Shown here: positions 4,548-14,298 of the stretch, in pieces
Numbering within the stretch: position 1 is the stretch's first letter
Layout: each line of letters opens with the position of its first letter
Source of the DNA: a virus
DNA length: 14,298 nucleotides
Virus genome (UHGV): UHGV-0208508
Reading direction: 5' to 3' (one strand)
The notes under the pieces: generated by a model
The model's input: only the letters and a program-made list of their open reading frames with translations
Told to the model about the DNA's origin: nothing
The model's database searches: none
Made by a program: the position numbers and the translations under genes

Positions 4548-5581
4548 GATATTATGATATTGAGATAACCATTCCTGCTGAAGGTGCCTCTCCGGAAAGA
4601 ACGATAAAATACAGTAGCCATAAGAACGGAGTTTACAACCCCGGCGCCCTGATGATTGAGTTTGATATCCTCAGGTACGGTGAATCGACTCCCCAGGGCG
4701 AAACTCACCTGACCATCTGGGGTATTGGCCCAAAAGAAATGCAGCAGGCTCGCCAGAATTTTTTTGGCAAAAAAATTAAAATATTCCTTGGGATGAAAGA
4801 CGGGCTGCCATTGGCTGGCAAGGTTACCTCACCAAAACTGGTATTGGATGGCGTGATAAATCAGGTCTTTGGTAACTGGCAGGGTATTGAGTTACGACTT
4901 GACTTCATAATCGTGGTTGGTCCTGTCCAGAACGTGCCAAATAACAAACCCGTACCCCTTCCTTTAACCTTTGACTGGAAGGAGGGGCAGAAGCTTTCTG
5001 TAGCCCTCACGCAGTGTTTTATGAACATCAGAGGGTATACGTTCAATATCAACATAAGCGACCGGCTAATCCTTAATCATTACCGGGGGCTGTTTTGTGA
5101 TGACATTGTCACCCTGGCCAAGGACCTTAATGCTTTTTCACGTTCCAGAATTCGCGATAGCGGGTACTCTGGTGTAGAGATCGCAATAGTGAATGGTAAT
5201 GAGATCCGGGTATGGGATAACGATTATGATAACCACCCGGATAAGACTTCTGTTTCCAGCGCCGTAGCCAGAAGCAACAGCCCAACCCAAATAGATTTCA
5301 AGGATTTGATAGGGCAGCCGACATGGGTGGCATTTAACACAATCAGCATGGCGTGCGTAATGCGCGGTGATATTCAGGTTGGCGATCACATCCTGATGCC
5401 TAAAAAAAGCACTCCGTTGATACAGGCCTCTTCGTACTCTCAGTATCGAGAAGACTCTGCCTTTACTGGCGACTTTATTGTGAACTCCGTTCGCCTGTTA
5501 GGGAATAGCAGGCAACCAACGGCAGAGGCATGGGTAACAATTATTGAGGCTTCCCCTTTCATTAAGGCAGGTAGTGCATGA
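4544..5581 (+). CDS. Putative baseplate hub protein (345 aa)
   Basis: GAGGT ribosome-binding site. It lies immediately upstream of the spike gene, the position of the hub (P2 gpD / Mu gp44-type) in contractile-tail clusters. The assignment is positional inference. Confidence 0.6.
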   Translation: MRYYDIEITIPAEGASPERTIKYSSHKNGVYNPGALMIEFDILRYGESTPQGETHLTIWGIGPKEMQQARQNFFGKKIKIFLGMKDGLPLAGKVTSPKLVLDGVINQVFGNWQGIELRLDFIIVVGPVQNVPNNKPVPLPLTFDWKEGQKLSVALTQCFMNIRGYTFNINISDRLILNHYRGLFCDDIVTLAKDLNAFSRSRIRDSGYSGVEIAIVNGNEIRVWDNDYDNHPDKTSVSSAVARSNSPTQIDFKDLIGQPTWVAFNTISMACVMRGDIQVGDHILMPKKSTPLIQASSYSQYREDSAFTGDFIVNSVRLLGNSRQPTAEAWVTIIEASPFIKAGSA

Positions 5582-6294: not shown

Positions 6295-6623
6295 GAACCT
6301 ATGGCCGAAACTCTGAGGGGAAGTGGGTCCTGGTGGAAACCGACGAAAATGGGTTTAATGACTTGGTGTATTTAACCACCCTGATCCAGAATCTGAAACT
6401 GGCGCCGCAGGAGTCACCCTTTTATGCGAACAACGGAATCCCGGCCGCCGGGTCGGTGATCCAGCAAATCCTGCCGACGTATTACGTAAACCGTATTCAG
6501 AAACAGTTCAGCCAGTATTTTTCCTCGCTGCAGATTGCACTGATCAGCGACGACCCGCCTGTTTATAACATCTCGGCAATCACAAATGCAGGTTCAAAAA
6601 TAATTACACAGGTGGCCGTATGA
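6291..6623 (+). CDS. Putative baseplate wedge protein (W/gp25-like, 110 aa)
   Basis: GTG start overlapping the upstream TGA (GTGA). Size and position directly upstream of the J-like gene fit the V-W-J-I order of P2/Mu-type baseplates. Inference from synteny and size. Confidence 0.55.
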   Translation: MRTYGRNSEGKWVLVETDENGFNDLVYLTTLIQNLKLAPQESPFYANNGIPAAGSVIQQILPTYYVNRIQKQFSQYFSSLQIALISDDPPVYNISAITNAGSKIITQVAV

Positions 6624-8038
6624 GCGATTTACCAGTCAGCTATACGTCAGCAGGCCCGGTTCCTCTGACGCCGGAAGAGCTACGAGCACAGCTCGTTTCT
6701 CAGGCAATTGCGCTATCTCCGGGACTCACAACTGATTTGCCTGGATCTCTGATTGAGGACGTGGCCAGTACCGATGTCGGCGCGCTCATCGTTTGTGATC
6801 AAGCAAGGGTTGACCTGATTAACTCGGTGGGGCCACTAAAGGCTAACCTGGCCATGCTGGAGCTTCTCGCACAGCAGGCTGGTATTCCTGGGCAGAAAAC
6901 GGCTGGCACAACAACAGTCCCGGTTCAGTTTTCCGGCCCCGCGGGATTTGTTATCCCACAGGGGTTTATTGTTTCTGATGGGACCTATACCTATTCAGTC
7001 AGTGATGCGACGATTATCTCGTCGTCTGGAGTATCTGCCAGCGTATCATGCGAGGGAACGGAGACCGGGACCTGGGCGGTGCCGGTAAATACGGTTAACC
7101 AGATCATATCCAGTCTACCGTCTGACGTCACCATCACCTGCACCAACCCGATCGCCGGCACTCCGGGTGCTGACCCGGAAACGAACTATCAGTTTCGTGA
7201 TCGCGTATGGCAGGCGCAGATGGCCACCGTTCAGGGATATCCTGGATTTATCCGGCAATATCTCACCAGCCTTGATAACGTGCAGGCGCGCCTGGTTTCT
7301 GTCATTCAGGACGGGGATAAATGGATAGTCATGTGTGCCGGCGGTGATATTTACGATATTGCTGGCGCGCTCTATAAGTCTGCGGGGGATATCAGCCGGC
7401 TGAAAGGGTGTTCACTGAACGTAACGGGAATCACGAATGCAAATCCTGGTGTCGTCAGCACAGACCTGACTCATGGTTACACTGACGGCCAGGTTATCCG
7501 GATCACTGGCGTTACCGGGATGACGGGTATTAATGACGTCCCTCTGACCGTGACGGTACTGTCTCCTCACACGTTTTCCATCGGGATTGACACCACGTCA
7601 TCCGGGACCTGGGGAGGCGGCGGCGAGGTGACACCGAACGTCAGAAACAATACCGTGACGGTGAATGACTGGCCTGATAACTACGTGATCCCGTTCGTGA
7701 CGCCATTGCTGCAGCGGGTCACTGTGACGTATCAGTGGGGGACAGAAAGTGTTAACTACCTGACAGATGCCACGGTCGCCTCTCTGGTCTCGGCGCCTAC
7801 GATTCAGTATGTGAACGGCATATTCGCCGGGAAACCGCTGAACGTTAACAACCTGAAAGACGCATTCTTACAGGCGATTAACTCGACAATCGACATGGGG
7901 CTGATCAGCACTTTAAACGTCGTGGTCACCATCAATGGTGTGATAACACCACCGGATGCCGGGACGAATATCATCAGCGGCGATAAGTTCAGTTATTTTT
8001 ATATCGCGTCGGATGGCGTGATCGTAACAGGGGCGTAG
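6620..8038 (+). CDS. Baseplate J-like protein (472 aa)
   Basis: ATGA overlap with the upstream gene and an AGGTGG ribosome-binding site. A large protein between the W-like and I-like genes, which is the conserved position of baseplate J / gp6-type wedge proteins. Confidence 0.7.
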   Translation: MSDLPVSYTSAGPVPLTPEELRAQLVSQAIALSPGLTTDLPGSLIEDVASTDVGALIVCDQARVDLINSVGPLKANLAMLELLAQQAGIPGQKTAGTTTVPVQFSGPAGFVIPQGFIVSDGTYTYSVSDATIISSSGVSASVSCEGTETGTWAVPVNTVNQIISSLPSDVTITCTNPIAGTPGADPETNYQFRDRVWQAQMATVQGYPGFIRQYLTSLDNVQARLVSVIQDGDKWIVMCAGGDIYDIAGALYKSAGDISRLKGCSLNVTGITNANPGVVSTDLTHGYTDGQVIRITGVTGMTGINDVPLTVTVLSPHTFSIGIDTTSSGTWGGGGEVTPNVRNNTVTVNDWPDNYVIPFVTPLLQRVTVTYQWGTESVNYLTDATVASLVSAPTIQYVNGIFAGKPLNVNNLKDAFLQAINSTIDMGLISTLNVVVTINGVITPPDAGTNIISGDKFSYFYIASDGVIVTGA

Positions 8039-8039
8039 C

Positions 8040-8744
8040 ATGCTGGACGATATCATCCGGTCGTATATGTATACGCAATACAACGACGATGAAAATCTGC
8101 GGGCGTTTTTTACTGCGTATAACTCGATGGCGCAGGGCATTTATGACTGGATGGTTAATGCCAACCTGCCGATTTTCATCGGTGACTACAACACCGGAGA
8201 TCAGCTCCGGTGGATTGCCCATGGCATCTATGGCGTTTTGCCGCCGGTGATTTCCAGCAGCGATCAGCAGGAGATAGGCCCATATAACACCTTCGAATTT
8301 AACCAACTGGCATTCAATGAATACCGGGTGATTGACCAGTCGAACCAGGTTGTTGTCTCCGATGACCTTTTTAAGCGGATCATGACCTGGAATTTTTATA
8401 AAGGTGACGGCTTCTATTTCTCTATCCCATGGATAAAACGGCGTATTCTGCGGTTCCTGTTGGGAGTGAATGGCACCGATATCCTCAATGACCAGCGGTG
8501 GAGTATATCGATCCAGTTTGTGGATGGCGGGATCGTGATATCCATCTATAAGGGGCGCCGCAGGTTCACGCGGAGCGCTATCTACAACGCATCGGCCTAT
8601 AACTCCAGGAAGTACAACCAGAAGGACACGGCCTTTGTGATCACCGAGGATTTCGAGTTCGCTATTTTCTTCAAGCAGGCCATGGATAGCGGCCTGCTTC
8701 ACATGCCGTTTTACCAGTCAGTCACGGTTGAGATATTTGACTAG
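8040..8744 (+). CDS. Baseplate/tail protein I-like (234 aa)
   Basis: Starts 2 nt after the J-like stop with an AGGGGCG ribosome-binding site. Position between J-like and the tail-fiber genes matches P2 gpI / Mu gp48-type proteins. Confidence 0.6.
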   Translation: MLDDIIRSYMYTQYNDDENLRAFFTAYNSMAQGIYDWMVNANLPIFIGDYNTGDQLRWIAHGIYGVLPPVISSSDQQEIGPYNTFEFNQLAFNEYRVIDQSNQVVVSDDLFKRIMTWNFYKGDGFYFSIPWIKRRILRFLLGVNGTDILNDQRWSISIQFVDGGIVISIYKGRRRFTRSAIYNASAYNSRKYNQKDTAFVITEDFEFAIFFKQAMDSGLLHMPFYQSVTVEIFD

Positions 8745-8996
8745 GTTTTTATCTCGATTATCTATTGTTATATACAAATGAGATTTAACGCACTGACAAA
8801 TTATATGCAGCACAACTATTGATAAAAACAAAATGGATGACATTTTTATCATATCTATTGGCGGCATTCCTTGCTGAAAAAGAAATCCAAATAAAATAGT
8901 AAGCAAGGCGCAAGAAAGGAGTATTAATAAAGTAGATAGCGTTCCTAAAAGTATTTTTAAAATAGCAATAGAAGCATTATTCATAATATTCACCAT
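8718..8996 (-). CDS. Hypothetical small hydrophobic (two predicted transmembrane segments) protein encoded antisense in an AT-rich island; may be an artefact of AT-rich composition
   Basis: 92-codon minus-strand ORF, strongly hydrophobic (ASIAILKILLGTLSTLLILLSCALLTILFGFLF and MSSILFLSIVVLHIICQCV). No convincing Shine-Dalgarno sequence at the first ATG (a weak GGTG precedes the second ATG). AT-rich DNA readily yields Ile/Leu/Phe-rich ORFs by chance. Confidence 0.25.
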   Translation of the reverse strand: MVNIMNNASIAILKILLGTLSTLLILLSCALLTILFGFLFQQGMPPIDMIKMSSILFLSIVVLHIICQCVKSHLYITIDNRDKNLVKYLNRD

Positions 8997-9002
8997 TTAA
9001 AA

Positions 9003-9026
9003 GGCCGCGCTTGCGGTTTTTTTATT
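9003..9026 (+). terminator. Putative rho-independent terminator-like hairpin with T-tract (CCGC-GCTT-GCGG followed by TTTTTTT), flanked upstream by an A-run so possibly bidirectional
   Basis: Short GC stem (4-5 bp) with a tetraloop, directly followed by 7 T residues on the plus strand. It lies about 20 nt upstream of the first fiber gene's ribosome-binding site. Confidence 0.4.
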
Positions 9027-9045
9027 GCCTAATCCCGGAGGATAC

Positions 9046-11790
9046 ATGGCACTAACCCTTTTGGCTACAAACAACGCAGAAAGCACGCTGGCTTCTGCTA
9101 TCAGCGCAACCGACACGTCGCTGATCGTTAGCGCTGGAACTGGTGCCGAGTTCCCTGATGCTGTGGCAGGCGAGAGCTACTTTAAACTCACGCTCACCGA
9201 TGCCGCCACCGGCTCACAGGTTGAGATCGTGAACGTGACAGCTAAGGCTGGGGACATCTTCACGATTGAACGTGCGCAAGAAGGAACGCTGGCGCGTTCG
9301 TGGGCGGCCAACGACATGGTTGCCAACATGATGACGGCGGATACGCTGAACATTATCGCTCAATATGCCCAGCAGGCAGCTGCATCAGCAGCACAGGCTG
9401 CTGAGTATGCAGATAACGCTTCTGACTACGCACAGAATAAGTTCACGTTCTTTAAGACCGCCAGCGATCCTGATGGCACTATTGCCGGGCTGGCCGCAAC
9501 GACTGAAGGGCAGTCATTCTGGGTAGCCCAAGGTCCAGATGCGCTTTCTGCTGCATGGCAGTATCAGAATGTTGCGGGTGTAGCCGTGTTACAGGCTAAG
9601 CAGCCAGGAACAGCGGCTATAACCGGGACAATCCGCGAATTTCCCACGCTGGAGGCGGCACAGGCCGACGCCGATGCTGGCAATATTCCTACAGGTTCAA
9701 ATGCGTATTATCGAAGCGCTGACGACACAACTCTTGCGATTGAGGTAATCAACAACGCCGGTACGTTGACAGCAACCGGAAGAAAAATTCCAGCGTATTC
9801 CGCTTTGCGCAGAGGCAACATTTTATTCGACGCATTTAATGAATATTCAGCTGTTGATCCTAAGTTTGGTGCCTGGGACTGGTATCGCGGAGCTACTGTT
9901 ACATTTAGTACTACTGATGCCAACATTCCGTTACCGACTCCAGTGGCACAGTATTCCGGCGTATGGTCTGCAGATAAATATTATGACCTTGCCCGCCTGC
10001 CTGTAAGGGTAGGCGATCAATTAACCTTTTCTGTGCTGGCATGGTTTCAGGATGCCGGTGCTAAGTTCCATATATTCTGGATGTCCGCGAGCGGTACGAT
10101 AATATCCTCAAAATCCGTAACTGGACTGGCTTCAGGAATTAATGTTCCAGTTTTAACAGATATTGTTCCTGCTGGGGCGTCGTATGTACGAATTCGCGTA
10201 GAAAACACGACAACAGGATCGTTCAAGGTGGGAGCCTATGCGTCCGCTGTTGGTTCTATTCAGCCTGAATTTATTCGTGCCGCTCCTGACAAGACCTATA
10301 TGTCAGCGATTGTCTCTTCAGGCATCGCTGGCCTAACCTCGCGCGTGGATGCGTTGCAGGGGGCCATTTCTGTTGGGTATCCGTATGCAGCGACCTGGCA
10401 GGTTGGTAAATTTGTAAACCCAAATACCGGGGAAATAACAGATAATGCTGCGCTGAACTGTACCATAATTCCTCATAGTGACGGGGACGGTTGGCTGGTT
10501 ACTGCTCTCGTTACTGGATCGGCCACAGCTCTGGCTGTGTATATGAATGCGGCTGGCACAGTGCTGGGAGTGGAGGGGCGCGGAACAACAACGCCGCAGC
10601 AGTATACGAATTACCGCCTTAACGTTCCGTCGGGAACCACGCAGATCGGCATAACCGGTCGTAATTCTGCTCCAATGTCTGTTAAGAAATTGGCCGTTGT
10701 TGAAACTGCTACTGTACTGGCTAGCATCGATTCTCTCGATTCACGTGTACAGAAAATAGAAGATTCGCTGGTTTACGATTTCGTTCAGCAGGATGTCCCT
10801 ATTACGTCTGGAGCATATATAAACCGATCTACCGGTGCCGTCGTAACAAACTCTGCATTTGATTGTTCGATATTTGACTATACAACAGGAGATCGCTGGA
10901 AAGTTACGGCAAGGGTGAATGGAACGAGCGTATCACTCGCTGTATATTTTAATTCAGTGGGCACTGTCATTGGGACGGAAGGCGATGGTACATCAGCATC
11001 TGTGGATTACATTGATTATGAGCTGACGCCACCAACCGGCACTGCCAGGATAGGCATCACAACACGGGTTGCACTTCCTATAGTTGCTAAAAAATATGTC
11101 ATTGTTCCCAGCGGAAGTACAGTAAGTCCGTGGTCGGGAAAAATTATTGATGTAATGGGAGACAGCAACGTAGCCTATAACAAATGGCAACCGCTGGTTG
11201 CTAGTGAACTTGGTTGTTCTTTCCTGAACCATGGTGTTGGTGGTTCAAAGATCGCCAAACCCGATAGTTCACCGACACAAATCAGCATGTGTGACGACGC
11301 CAGGATTAATGCCCTCGATACGACGGCCACTGCCTGGATTTGTGGCCCGTGGGGGACAAATGACTGGGCGCAAAATATACCCATTGGAACTATTAGTGAC
11401 ACTGTGAATACCACGGTCTATGGTGCGCTAGTCATAATTGCACAAAAGCTTAGGGCGAGAGCACCAACCAAGCCTATTTTTTGGGTTACTCCATTCAACG
11501 GAGATTATGAAACTGGGAGGACTAGTTCATGGGTTGATGGGGAAACTAACCAATATGGCAGGGTGTCTGATTATTCTGCTGCAATTCGAGCTGTAGCTCT
11601 GCGATATGGCTTCCCATTGATTGATTTAAATGCAGATTGTGGGTGGACAAAATTTAATAGTAGTTATTTTTTGCTAACGGAAGGTGATACTAACCCTTCT
11701 CATATTCATTTAAATGATAGTGCTGGTCCAGCCAGAATTTCGGAGTTGGTAATAGATCGTTTAACGGCCCTTGCGAATTTGGCCAACTAG
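9046..11790 (+). CDS. Tail fiber / tailspike protein with C-terminal SGNH/GDSL-family hydrolase (esterase-like) domain (about 914 aa from ATG 9046)
   Basis: GGAGGA ribosome-binding site before ATG 9046. N-terminal about 105 aa is homologous to the N-terminus of the downstream fiber. An Ala/Gln-rich probable coiled-coil segment follows, then beta-rich repeats. The C-terminus carries GDS (VMGDSNV), a conserved Gly block (NHGVGGSK), GxND (WGTNDW) and a His block (NPSHIHLND). Confidence 0.85.
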   Translation: MALTLLATNNAESTLASAISATDTSLIVSAGTGAEFPDAVAGESYFKLTLTDAATGSQVEIVNVTAKAGDIFTIERAQEGTLARSWAANDMVANMMTADTLNIIAQYAQQAAASAAQAAEYADNASDYAQNKFTFFKTASDPDGTIAGLAATTEGQSFWVAQGPDALSAAWQYQNVAGVAVLQAKQPGTAAITGTIREFPTLEAAQADADAGNIPTGSNAYYRSADDTTLAIEVINNAGTLTATGRKIPAYSALRRGNILFDAFNEYSAVDPKFGAWDWYRGATVTFSTTDANIPLPTPVAQYSGVWSADKYYDLARLPVRVGDQLTFSVLAWFQDAGAKFHIFWMSASGTIISSKSVTGLASGINVPVLTDIVPAGASYVRIRVENTTTGSFKVGAYASAVGSIQPEFIRAAPDKTYMSAIVSSGIAGLTSRVDALQGAISVGYPYAATWQVGKFVNPNTGEITDNAALNCTIIPHSDGDGWLVTALVTGSATALAVYMNAAGTVLGVEGRGTTTPQQYTNYRLNVPSGTTQIGITGRNSAPMSVKKLAVVETATVLASIDSLDSRVQKIEDSLVYDFVQQDVPITSGAYINRSTGAVVTNSAFDCSIFDYTTGDRWKVTARVNGTSVSLAVYFNSVGTVIGTEGDGTSASVDYIDYELTPPTGTARIGITTRVALPIVAKKYVIVPSGSTVSPWSGKIIDVMGDSNVAYNKWQPLVASELGCSFLNHGVGGSKIAKPDSSPTQISMCDDARINALDTTATAWICGPWGTNDWAQNIPIGTISDTVNTTVYGALVIIAQKLRARAPTKPIFWVTPFNGDYETGRTSSWVDGETNQYGRVSDYSAAIRAVALRYGFPLIDLNADCGWTKFNSSYFLLTEGDTNPSHIHLNDSAGPARISELVIDRLTALANLAN
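10405..11106 (+). repeat. Two tandem homologous domain repeats of about 100 codons each inside the first fiber gene (about 10405-10701 and 10810-11106), diverged at nucleotide level
   Basis: Protein-level alignment by eye: GWLVTALVTGSATALAVYMNAAGTVLGVEGRGTTTPQQYTNYRLNVPSGTTQIGITGR versus RWKVTARVNGTSVSLAVYFNSVGTVIGTEGDGTSASVDYIDYELTPPTGTARIGITTR. Confidence 0.6.
11131..11787 (+). other. SGNH/GDSL hydrolase-like catalytic domain at the C-terminus of the first fiber (predicted catalytic Ser codon at 11164-11166)
   Basis: Ordered motif blocks typical of SGNH hydrolases: GDS near the domain start, a conserved Gly, GxND, and a C-terminal Asp/His block. Assigned from motif order only, with no profile search. 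Confidence 0.6.
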
Positions 11791-11865
11791 ATATTTATTG
11801 TCTTTGAAGTGAGGCTATTTCTGCGATGTTTATTCTGATAATTCCATTATTTAACAGGGGTATAT

Positions 11866-12897
11866 ATGGCGCTTAAGCTATTAGCCAATAATAACGCAAA
11901 GAGTGTTCTCGCTGCGGGTATTAGCGCGTCCGCTACCGTTATTACCGTGGGTACCGGAGCGGGGGCTTTATTCCCTTCCCCTGTATCTGGACAGAGTTAT
12001 TTCAAATTAACGATAACCGACGCGGCCACGAAAACAATTTCTGAAATTATGCACGTCACGTCTGTATCCGGTGACGTGATGACAGTAATTCGTGGTCAGG
12101 AAGGAACTACGGCACGCGTATGGTCAACAAATGACATTGTCGCGAATCTAATGACAGCCGGATCATTGTTATCGTTCCTGCAGATCAGTAATAACCTGTC
12201 AGAAATTAAAGATGCCGGTGATGATGCGGTAAATGAAGCCCGTTATAACCTCGGAATATCTGATTCCTCTGGTTTTGTCGGGCGTTCACTTGGCGCTCCA
12301 AAAGTTTTCTATGCAAACGGAACCTATACGCGATCTCCTCTGGCCCGTTATGCAAAAGTAACGTTGACCGGTGCCGGTGGCGGCGGTGGCGGCTGCCAGG
12401 CATCTAATAACACCGAAACCTTTTCCGGTGCCGGCGGCGGCGCGGGTGCGACCATTATCGTATGGGTTGACCTGTCTGCTGCCAGTTCTTACGCGATTAC
12501 TGTCGGCAAGGGTGGTAAGGGCGGAGTTGGCGCAGTAAGTGGTGCGGATGGTGGTGCTACCTCGTTTGCCAGCCTGTTCTCAGCTCCTGGCGGGAAAGGC
12601 GGCGTGAAGTCAGGCGTGTCCAATACCGCCGGCGGCGCCGGAGGTACGGCGGCGACCGGAGATATCAGGATCAACGGTGGTACCGGCTCAGATGGACAGA
12701 CAGGCTCAAGCCTTCTGACGGGAAACGGCGGGGCGTCGTATTTTGGCGGCGGTGGCCGGGCGGGTTCTCAGGCCGGTATTGCTGGCGCAGCTCCCGGATC
12801 CGGTGGTGGTGGCGCGTATGACCTTGGGTTTACCGGTACGGCATTTACCGGTGGTGATGGTGCTACTGGCATGGCGATCGTGGAAGAATTCGCGTAA
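11866..12897 (+). CDS. Second tail fiber / receptor-binding protein with glycine-rich C-terminal domain (343 aa)
   Basis: AGGGG ribosome-binding site before ATG 11866. N-terminal about 105 aa aligns with the first fiber N-terminus (MALxLLAxNNAxSxLAxxISAxxT...SYFKLTxTDAAT...QEGTxAR.W..ND.VAN.MTA). The C-terminal about 180 aa are dominated by GG/GGG/GGGG motifs separated by short variable segments. Confidence 0.8.
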   Translation: MALKLLANNNAKSVLAAGISASATVITVGTGAGALFPSPVSGQSYFKLTITDAATKTISEIMHVTSVSGDVMTVIRGQEGTTARVWSTNDIVANLMTAGSLLSFLQISNNLSEIKDAGDDAVNEARYNLGISDSSGFVGRSLGAPKVFYANGTYTRSPLARYAKVTLTGAGGGGGGCQASNNTETFSGAGGGAGATIIVWVDLSAASSYAITVGKGGKGGVGAVSGADGGATSFASLFSAPGGKGGVKSGVSNTAGGAGGTAATGDIRINGGTGSDGQTGSSLLTGNGGASYFGGGGRAGSQAGIAGAAPGSGGGGAYDLGFTGTAFTGGDGATGMAIVEEFA

Positions 12898-12901
12898 TGG
12901 C

Positions 12902-14062
12902 TTACACTCCTGCACGACCATCGATGTAATCAGCCCACCACTGCATCATTTCTCTGCGCTTATCTAGATACTGAGCATGGTTGTAAATACCGCGCACAGA
13001 TCCGCCGTTGGCATGTGCCAGCTGCACTTCAATAGCGTCAGCAGGCCATTCGTGCTCGTTCATAATCGTGCTGAATTCATGCCTGAATCCGTGACCGCTT
13101 TCCAGACCCTCATAGCCGATTTGTTTGATCACAAGCAGTACCGCATTCTCGCAGATTGGCTTCTTCTTATCGTTGCGCCCGGCAAAAACAAACTCTGAGA
13201 CTGGTTTGGTGATTGAGCTTAGCGTAGTGAGAAGTTCAACCACCTGGTCTGACATAGGAACAACATGAATCTTGCGGCCCTTCATCACACTGGCGTCGAT
13301 AGTGATAATCCTGTTTTCAAAATCGACGTTCTTCCATAGCATGGAACGAAGCTCTTTTGTTCTGAGGGCTGTGTAGCGTAAAACTTTGGTCGCAATGAGC
13401 GATACGATACTTCCTGAAAATGTTGCCAGTGCTTTGTTGAATGCAGGGATCTGGTCTGCTGGGAGAAACGGGAAGTTCTTCTTGCGGTATCCCTTCATGG
13501 CGTCAGCAAGGTCAGGTGCCGGGTTATATTTAGCCCTTCCGGTGACAATAGCGTAACGGAAAACCTCGCCGCATCTTCTGCGTGCTTTGTTGGCTCGCTC
13601 CATTGCACCGCGATCTTCAAATCTGCGGATTACTTCCAGCAGTTGCATCGGCTCAATATCCTGAATTTCAAGGCCGCCGATGATAGGTAAAATGTCGTCA
13701 TCAAACATTTTTGCAAGTTCAGTTGCATACCCTACTGACCATACTTGCTTCTTGTGCTCGTACCATTCTTTGTAAATCGCACTAAAGGAATTGTTGTTAG
13801 ACGAAGCCTTTTTCGCTTTTACCGGATCGATGCCAACCGAGATGTCTTTCCTCGCGGTCCATGCTTTATCTCTTGCCTCCTGCAAAGTCATAAGCGGATA
13901 TTTTCCGACGGTCAGGATTTTCTCCTTACCGTCAATCTTGTAGCGAAGCTGCCATACCTTTTTCCCTGACACAGGGACATAAAGGTACAGGCCATTACCA
14001 TCGAGTAGGCGGTATGGTTTTTCTTTCGGCTTTGCTGCTTCAATCTGCTTAACGGTGAGCAT
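12902..14062 (-). CDS. Phage integrase, tyrosine recombinase of the P4/IntS-like family (386 aa from the ATG at 14060-14062; an in-frame GTG at 14096-14098 would add 12 codons)
   Basis: 398-codon minus-strand ORF with C-terminal catalytic-domain signatures (HGFRHEF for His-x-x-Arg, and RGIYNHAQY with the presumptive catalytic Tyr) and an N-terminal arm-type DNA-binding region. It lies about 125-160 bp from a co-oriented tRNA gene, the canonical integrase-tRNA arrangement. Confidence 0.9.
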   Translation of the reverse strand: MLTVKQIEAAKPKEKPYRLLDGNGLYLYVPVSGKKVWQLRYKIDGKEKILTVGKYPLMTLQEARDKAWTARKDISVGIDPVKAKKASSNNNSFSAIYKEWYEHKKQVWSVGYATELAKMFDDDILPIIGGLEIQDIEPMQLLEVIRRFEDRGAMERANKARRRCGEVFRYAIVTGRAKYNPAPDLADAMKGYRKKNFPFLPADQIPAFNKALATFSGSIVSLIATKVLRYTALRTKELRSMLWKNVDFENRIITIDASVMKGRKIHVVPMSDQVVELLTTLSSITKPVSEFVFAGRNDKKKPICENAVLLVIKQIGYEGLESGHGFRHEFSTIMNEHEWPADAIEVQLAHANGGSVRGIYNHAQYLDKRREMMQWWADYIDGRAGV

Positions 14063-14223
14063 GGGTAAAAATCCGGTGGGTAAAATTATTTTATCCACTT
14101 TTTACCCGTCATGGAGTGCGGCTGTCAACGATCTGACGCGAACCATTACGAACTGTGAATCTACGGAAGGCTTGATATTCAGGGGATTTTGCGGACTGGT
14201 ACGGATGGGAGCGAACTGATAAA

Positions 14224-14298
14224 TGGTGTCCCCTGCAGGAATCGAACCTGCAATTAGCCCTTAGGAGGGGCTCGTTATATCCATTTAACTAAGAGGAC
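14224..14298 (-). tRNA. argW: tRNA-Arg (anticodon CCU), 75 nt including 3' CCA; its 5' end coincides with the window edge
   Basis: The reverse complement reads GTCCTCTTAGTTAAATGGATATAACGAGCCCCTCCTAAGGGCTAATTGCAGGTTCGATTCCTGCAGGGGACACCA. It folds as a cloverleaf with a 7 bp acceptor stem (GTCCTCT/AGGGGAC), T-arm GCAGG-TTCGATT-CCTGC, and anticodon loop CUCCUAA (anticodon CCU). It matches my recollection of enterobacterial argW. Confidence 0.88.

Follow-up and report, generated by a model that had tools for sequence, protein, structure and literature searches.

UHGV virus genome UHGV-0208508 is represented here by a stretch of 14,298 nucleotides (nt; the window), which contains the tail module and the right end of a prophage, with a tape-measure-sized gene, baseplate genes, fibres, an integrase and a tRNA. 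An AT-rich island of 301 nt (8745..9045, assigned to neither strand) lies between the 'I-like' baseplate gene and the first tail-fibre gene, and is probably a moron, with one minus-strand gene for an 88-amino-acid (aa) inner-membrane protein in the late operon. The open reading frame (ORF) antisense to the late genes is almost certainly a real coding gene, and there is little doubt that the island is accessory cargo. The 88-aa product is likely, on the structural model, to form a membrane hairpin of two helices. By its backbone the phage falls in the proposed Felixvirales/Felixviridae group, and it is a prophage of E. coli; the proposed group consists of temperate phages of gut Enterobacteriaceae (bioRxiv 10.1101/2024.12.02.626457).

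The island has a guanine-cytosine (GC) content of 0.316, compared with 0.507 over the whole window, and the lowest-GC 200-nt bin of the window is 8801-9000, at 0.285. A first, sequence-only reading of this DNA had described the gap as AT-rich, 280 bp long, with no plus-strand ORF of more than 14 codons. The AT-richness holds, but the gap measures 301 nt, and a plus-strand ORF at 8819-8899 has 26 codons from a TTG start or 20 from an ATG.

The antisense gene and its protein family

The minus-strand ORF at 8996..8718 has 92 codons plus a stop and encodes two strongly hydrophobic segments, as had been noticed in the sequence-only reading. Its length by itself is only modest evidence for a gene, since the longest open frame inside the island has 84 codons, while 5000 dinucleotide shuffles give 50 +/- 12 (p = 0.015). 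Homologues were sought with the 234-aa I-like gene as the anchor: 92 loci encoding its relatives were fetched, and the slot between this gene and the fibre gene was catalogued (loci are numbered with the prefix L). A word-indexed protein search matched the near-identical cluster alone, and the homologues surfaced through the slot catalogue and an exhaustive HMMER search. In the catalogue, three further and far more diverged slot classes carry a plainly homologous minus-strand ORF. The HMMER search, over 1.84 billion representatives, gives nine matches at E <= 1e-3, which are the near-identical cluster P0001 and eight others at 33-46% identity. A profile search gives 15 clusters, all hypothetical or unnamed except for one short partial match labelled FtsI/PBP2. 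A hidden Markov model scan of six-frame ORFs finds the family in 40 fetched loci overall, as 24 distinct proteins. The family is recognizable from an MNN.. start, K.LL and LS(C/A/V) in helix 1, a (D/E/N)G(M/I)PP loop and, distally, IIC.C(L/V)K at the end of helix 2 followed by D(N/S)R.

The ratio of nonsynonymous to synonymous substitution rates (dN/dS, by the Nei-Gojobori method) is 0.05-0.15 in the better-sampled pairs of the family. The lowest value is 0.05 for L064/L070, with 38.5 synonymous and 14.5 nonsynonymous changes, and other pairs give 0.07 (L107/L109), 0.08 (L007/L053), 0.10 (L069/L075) and 0.11 (L070/L077). These substitution patterns indicate that the family is under strong purifying selection where the divergence is informative. 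The suggestion that the antisense ORF is a gene is thus borne out by the conservation of the protein and the selection acting on it.

The homologues all begin with MNN or MNK at the codon of ATG 8984, which is codon 5 of the 92-codon ORF. Because they all align from this codon, the gene start appears to be ATG 8984 and not the upstream ATG of the first reading. The coding sequence at 8718..8984 (minus strand, stop included), assigned from the homologues, dN/dS and AlphaFold2, would then encode an 88-aa two-transmembrane protein (MNNASIAILK...DNRDKNLVKYLNRD). The four extra in-frame codons at 8985..8996 on the minus strand (MVNI), which make up the 92-codon form, are probably not translated: ATG 8996 has no Shine-Dalgarno sequence in front of it, and the long-form homologues described below have no MVNI-like extension. 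In the other compact class, L047, an in-frame ATG likewise lies four codons upstream. A Shine-Dalgarno-like GGTGA can be read from the sequence at 8990..8994 on the minus strand, 5 nt upstream of ATG 8984, and the relatives have AAGGAG, ACAGGAG or AAGGGTG at this position.

The 3' ends of the small gene and the I-like gene converge and overlap by 27 nt (8718..8744, both strands), and the last 8-9 codons of the window protein (LVKYLNRD) are antisense to I-like coding sequence. A 7-bp inverted repeat (GCAGGCC...GGCCTGC, 8660-8700) lies inside the I-like coding sequence just downstream of the minus-strand stop of the small gene, and is kept in relatives. It may make the minus-strand transcript more stable at its 3' end, or may reflect a coding constraint on the I-like gene.

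The antisense gene represents a new protein family in the databases searched, and is largely missed by annotation. The Prokaryotic Genome Annotation Pipeline (PGAP) makes no call for it in E. coli genomes. In the Enterobacter loci L103-L105 (P0011, P0017) the family is annotated as 143-144 aa, with a start about 53 codons too far upstream that overlaps the 5' end of the fibre gene on the opposite strand. This extended start looks like a start-site annotation error.

AlphaFold2, with the family alignment as input, models the protein as a hairpin of two helices at residues 3-37 and 43-85 (mean predicted local distance difference test score 82.7). By hydropathy the cores are at about residues 11-36 and 48-66, with almost no charge across the family, and are separated by an 11-residue loop. 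A conserved G-x-P-P lies in the loop that joins the two helices, and the C-terminal tail has a net positive charge of +3 to +8 across the family. By the positive-inside rule, both ends would be cytoplasmic and the G-x-P-P loop periplasmic, with the hairpin in the inner membrane. In the PDB fold search the top matches, membrane hairpins at the C-termini of ArnC and GtrB, have E ~1 and were treated as non-significant. Weak matches to Phage_holin_2, DUF2721 and STM3941 were dismissed as effects of membrane-helix composition.

The slot, its terminator and its cargo

The island is present in 19 of 5426 complete E. coli genomes, 90 of which carry the flanking genes. The 19 islands fall into two alleles with 8 differing positions (4 synonymous, 4 nonsynonymous), and the ORF is open in both. 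E. coli ST540 (CP007265, CP007390, CP007391) and ETEC4091 (CP122617) carry an island identical to that of the window. Among the 92 loci fetched through the I-like gene, 25 have the small gene. Relatives with I-like genes 94-98% identical carry unrelated cargo in the slot, and more diverged relatives (60-64% identical) have an empty slot of 67-69 nt. The island thus has two features of a moron, namely a patchy presence at a precise position between two conserved genes and a base composition unlike that of the surrounding genes. This distribution, and the unrelated cargo in close relatives, agree with the earlier suggestion of an accessory insertion unrelated to tail assembly. Across related prophages the island comes and goes while its ORF is conserved, unlike a plain spacer.

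Both anchor genes are present in 86 loci, which make up the slot catalogue. The two genes overlap (-11 to -4 nt), are separated by a short gap (7-35 nt), flank an 'empty' slot of 67-69 nt that holds the hairpin, T-run and fibre ribosome-binding site only (L082-L088), or flank a filled slot of 109 nt to ~3 kb. The filled slots hold at least 15 unrelated cargo classes with GC contents of 0.30-0.44, mostly encoding exported proteins. Proteins with signal peptides or lipoboxes, of 153, 174, 187, 210, 212, 230, 254 and 322 aa, are encoded by the plus-strand cargo; gp22 of Klebsiella phage Chronis is among them. The minus-strand cargo includes secreted proteins of 133 aa (phage RothC) and 138 aa, and larger inserts of ~2.5-3 kb have several ORFs. 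The two-helix family, on the minus strand, is one more of the cargo classes of the slot. Pfam gives no family for eight of the alternative cargo proteins.

Signal peptides or lipoboxes (LSSGC, LVGC, IAGC, LSGC) occur in nearly all of the proteins encoded by the cargo of slots L002, L003, L005, L006, L052, L054, L058, L060, L062 and L063. The 133-aa secreted protein of RothC is annotated as three tiny ORFs. The slots of 2.5-3 kb in L070-L074, L076 and L079 contain the two-helix gene with its promoter and hairpin, then more ORFs, a second hairpin and the fibre gene. Since several cargo units are stacked in some relatives, the slot can accumulate cargo serially.

The hairpin and T-tract noticed in the sequence-only reading are present on the plus strand at 8999..9023, as an intrinsic-terminator-like hairpin with the sequence AAAAGGCCGC-GCTT-GCGGTTTTTT (stem 8999-9008 / 9013-9022, loop GCTT, T7 run 9017-9023). 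The fold has -11.3 kcal/mol on the plus strand versus -6.5 on the minus strand. A stricter terminator scan of the window does not list this hairpin, and recovers the equivalent one in L069 and L077. An equivalent hairpin with a T-run is found 18-29 nt before the fibre ATG (23-29 in all but one class) in 68 of the 86 loci, or 41 of 54 distinct sequences. The hairpins of the relatives have a GC-rich stem and a 3-6-nt loop, and the pairing is kept throughout 14 different stem sequences, such as CCGC/GCGG, CCCGC/GCGGG, CCTCGC/GCGGGG, CCCAC/GTGGG and CCGCC/GGCGG. The stems were tallied directly; a MAFFT alignment of the terminators is off the structural register.

The empty slots also have the hairpin (L082-L088, ~4730-4775), and the cargo is always on its upstream side. 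The hairpin therefore does not mark the end of the island, as had been read; as an intrinsic terminator of the plus strand it belongs to the phage backbone, or was captured very early. Nor is it the small gene's own terminator, since its position is upstream of the gene. In the empty slots a promoter would not fit between the terminator and the fibre ribosome-binding site, so fibre expression must pass the terminator by read-through or antitermination.

The small gene is found antisense beside several fibre types, with Gp53-like_C, Gly_rich_2 or SGNH domains, and hence tracks no single receptor specificity. Homologues also occur outside the slot. One adjoins the xis/int genes of a lambdoid prophage, where an intrinsic terminator stands at either end of the unit (the L098 homologue has a terminator). 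In marine contigs the homologue lies between tail genes and shares their strand, at a distance of two genes past the tape measure. A tblastn search with three family members found no homologue in 50,697 deposited phage genomes or 72,556 plasmids, under a low-complexity filter that in a control leaves 27-35 of 40 known loci detectable.

The family has long and compact forms. The long-form relatives encode proteins of 95-108 aa (97 aa in L064), ~10-20 residues longer than the compact form, with a stop codon that abuts the stop of the 234-aa gene, and many end in R-x-[DE]-[DE]-[VIL]-x-[VILM]. Their hairpin and ATG are 55-70 nt apart, and this interval has a strong Shine-Dalgarno sequence and, 34-38 nt before the ATG, an extended -10 motif (TGnTAAGAT, TGATATAAT, TGATACAAT, TGATAGAAT, TGTTATGAT). 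The motif is present in 9 of 20 distinct upstream regions, which are phylogenetically non-independent, compared with 3.4 +/- 1.6 in shuffles, and none of 500 shuffles reaches 9. A two-hexamer promoter scan gives nothing relevant in the window or its relatives. The compact form comprises the window class (13 loci) and the L047/L048 class, with 18-27 nt from hairpin to ATG and a frame that runs 8-9 codons into I-like antisense.

Possible function and competing explanations

The small gene would read against the late operon, and late transcription would be antisense to it. Because of this opposition, expression would be expected in the lysogen and not during lytic growth. The product would then alter the cell envelope of the lysogen. 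An envelope role appears most likely because the alternative cargo of the slot is almost always exported or membrane-bound. The membrane location, the interchangeability with exported cargo and the other positions of the gene, which are classic moron positions (on the integrase side and near the tape measure), together suggest an envelope function that benefits the lysogen. The leading candidate function, by analogy and only tentatively proposed, is superinfection exclusion at the inner membrane or at DNA entry, like that of T4 Imm or HK97 gp15 and unrelated to them in sequence.

A more specific proposal is speculative and rather unlikely as a whole. The family would be a new inner-membrane exclusion class specific for phages with a Mu-like contractile tail module, and the tape-measure protein of relatives does have a lytic-transglycosylase domain. 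The antisense position would work as a switch, with the protein produced in the lysogen and shut off on induction by the converging late transcription, which would spare the phage's own progeny functions. The slot, just upstream of the backbone terminator, would be a dedicated hot spot at which Felixviridae-like prophages of gut Enterobacteriaceae gather anti-phage cargo directed at the envelope.

Several results weigh against a moron with a functional membrane protein gene. No family search ties the small protein to a known function: Pfam, NCBIfam, PHROGs and PADLOC give nothing above threshold for the window protein and 14 family members, a PDB profile search with the family has no match, and Foldseek of the AlphaFold model against BFVD and PDB gives generic helical hairpins, none at E <= 0.001. 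Alignment with hhalign gives a probability of 0.1% for HK97 gp15 and of 3.4%, over 10 aligned columns, for T4 Imm. There is no terminator downstream of the small gene on the minus strand, where a moron might have its own. No sigma-70-like site is found on either strand of 8400-9400, and only 18 nt separate the hairpin from ATG 8984. Two parts of the long forms, the promoter region of ~50 nt and the C-terminal tail, are missing from the compact classes, whose dN/dS values are also higher, 0.28 within the window class (4 synonymous, 4 nonsynonymous changes) and 0.51 to L047. The compact alleles could therefore be partly disabled. The defence models of PADLOC-DB 2.0 also give no match at E <= 1.

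The leading rival explanation is that the window allele is a decaying relic, trimmed so that its promoter and C-terminal tail are deleted, unexpressed, and with an ORF that is open merely because the change is recent. The short leader with no promoter-like site, the loss of the R-x-[DE]-[DE]-[VIL]-x-[VILM] tail with the frame continuing into I-like antisense, and the raised dN/dS compared with 0.05-0.15 in the long forms would all fit. But the ORF is intact in all 13 loci of the window class, as 6 protein variants, and GGTGA is kept 5 nt before the ATG. The L047/L048 class, moreover, differs from the window at 95 of 267 nt and still has the same length and an open frame, for which the chance under random substitution is 0.012. 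The differences fall on codon positions in a ratio of 39/17/39. Since the frame stays open over 95 substitutions and the second codon positions change least, the compact form is concluded, from this pattern, to be still under coding constraint. A relic is an unlikely account of the window allele, though one with a real share of the probability.

A membrane-damaging protein, that is a holin-like or toxin-like pore former acting in lysis timing, in abortive infection or as a small toxin, appears improbable. Class II holins are small proteins with two transmembrane helices and a charged C-terminal tail, which the window protein resembles in size, helices and tail. Five members of one Enterobacter subgroup match PF23778 Phage_holin_2 weakly, and one member matches a Saf_2TM effector domain. 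The best Phage_holin_2 score, however, is 15.7 bits against a cut-off of 32 and is confined to this one lineage, and the window protein has no match. The small gene also lies antisense within the tail module, outside the lysis cassette, and is not the holin of the phage, since the plaque-forming relatives Chronis, RothC and RothD do not have it. Type I toxins usually have fewer than 60 aa and one helix, unlike this 88-aa, two-helix protein, and neither an antisense small RNA with its own promoter nor a small-RNA family was found. The sequence-only reading had offered a small RNA as the alternative to a gene. A plus-strand small RNA that ends at the hairpin, or an untranslated region that regulates the fibre genes, with the ORF as a T-rich by-product, is very improbable. 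A good plus-strand terminator does close the island, a T-rich strand naturally encodes hydrophobic residues, and there are two sub-threshold Rfam small-RNA matches that end at the terminator (csRNA at 25.7 bits versus 57, isrK at 15.5 versus 50). These Rfam 15 matches are far below the gathering score and reflect the terminator alone, which also occurs where the island is absent. The plus-strand island RNA is no more structured than its shuffles (z = 0.16), and a scan finds no plus-strand promoter-like site. The frame is kept as protein among homologues at 33-46% identity while synonymous sites are saturated, which is not expected under an RNA or spacer model. A chance ORF in AT-rich DNA, with no gene, might have been argued from the modest excess in length within the window (p = 0.015) and the silence of PGAP. 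It is refuted by the comparative data, with at least 24 distinct homologous versions, dN/dS down to 0.05, several genera and three genomic positions.

A moron with one gene for an inner-membrane protein is a kind of feature that is already well known, since morons encoding small membrane proteins have been described before, and the understanding of phage biology is unchanged by this one. With this gene, the known accessory genes of prophages gain a conserved family of small membrane proteins that matches nothing in Pfam, NCBIfam, PHROGs or PADLOC, and that standard annotation misses (PGAP in E. coli) or gives a wrong, extended start (Enterobacter). The slot is a precise and easily scanned cargo site in widespread temperate phages of gut Enterobacteriaceae, with at least 15 alternative exported proteins, and so gives a compact candidate set. 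If the cargoes are indeed exclusion or receptor-masking factors, they would matter for the host range of phages and for phage therapy directed at Klebsiella and E. coli.

Neighbouring genes and known systems

The left flank of the island (8040..8744, plus strand) is the last gene of the baseplate module. It encodes 234 aa and is 'I-like' by position only; the sole match of its product is PHROG 8212, of unknown function. It follows a Baseplate_J-like gene (6620-8038). The right flank (9046..11790, plus strand) is the first tail-fibre gene, whose 914-aa product has a conserved N-terminal anchor and a C-terminal SGNH/GDSL esterase. Its ribosome-binding site GGAGG (9037-9041) and start ATG (9046-9048) occupy 9037..9048 on the plus strand, and the block TTATTGCCTAAATCCCGGAGGAnAnATG at this site and start is kept across relatives.

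A second tail-fibre gene lies at 11866-12897. The two fibres have a common N-terminal anchor (PHROGs 6427, 25419 and 8469; residues ~1-110/160 in both) and differ in their distal parts, an SGNH/GDSL esterase in the first and a glycine-rich domain in the second. This suggests that they are alternative or branched receptor-binding proteins on one attachment site. A second AT-rich dip (11601-11900, GC 0.365-0.375) covers the 3' end of fibre 1 and the 75-nt gap before fibre 2, and may be a recombination joint of the fibre cassette. The tyrosine integrase gene (12902-14098, minus strand) directly adjoins a tRNA-Arg(CCT) gene with an Rfam match (14224-14298, minus strand), which marks the prophage end and the probable integration site. 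Just downstream of the fibres and chaperone, L102, L106 and L107-L109 have genes of the Acyl_transf_3 or GDSL-lipase type, and a Peptidase_S24 gene comes next in L107 and L109. These may belong to a second accessory region, as conversion genes that modify the O-antigen.

HK97 gp15 is likewise a small hydrophobic protein from a short insertion in the tail-gene operon of a temperate coliphage. Its gene lies between the tail-chaperone and tape-measure genes, is labelled 'moron product' in GenBank, and is followed by a factor-independent terminator directly before the next late gene, a layout like that in the window. The protein is reportedly expressed from the prophage and blocks DNA entry. HK97 gp15 has 62 aa, a single N-terminal hydrophobic stretch and a gene on the same strand as the late genes, whereas the window gene encodes 88 aa with two helices and is antisense. 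T4 Imm, at 83 aa, is similar in size to the window protein and also consists mostly of two hydrophobic helices, with a short charged C-terminal tail after them. According to its annotation, it alters the membrane and thereby leaves the DNA of superinfecting phages in the periplasm. Imm, however, is an early gene of a virulent phage, while the window gene is a prophage moron with a putative exclusion role. The class II holins (PF23778) have the small size, two helices and charged C-terminus in common with the window protein, and differ in the place and strand of the gene and in a match score that is half of the cut-off.

The cor genes of phi80/N15, llp of T5 and lom of lambda are accessory envelope-directed genes beside fibre or receptor-binding genes, as are the cargo genes of the slot. 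Cor inactivates FhuA (PMC11436027). The alternative cargoes of the slot resemble this group in being lipoproteins or secreted proteins. The products of cor, llp and lom are outer-membrane proteins or lipoproteins, and in this they differ from the window product, a predicted helical hairpin of the inner membrane.

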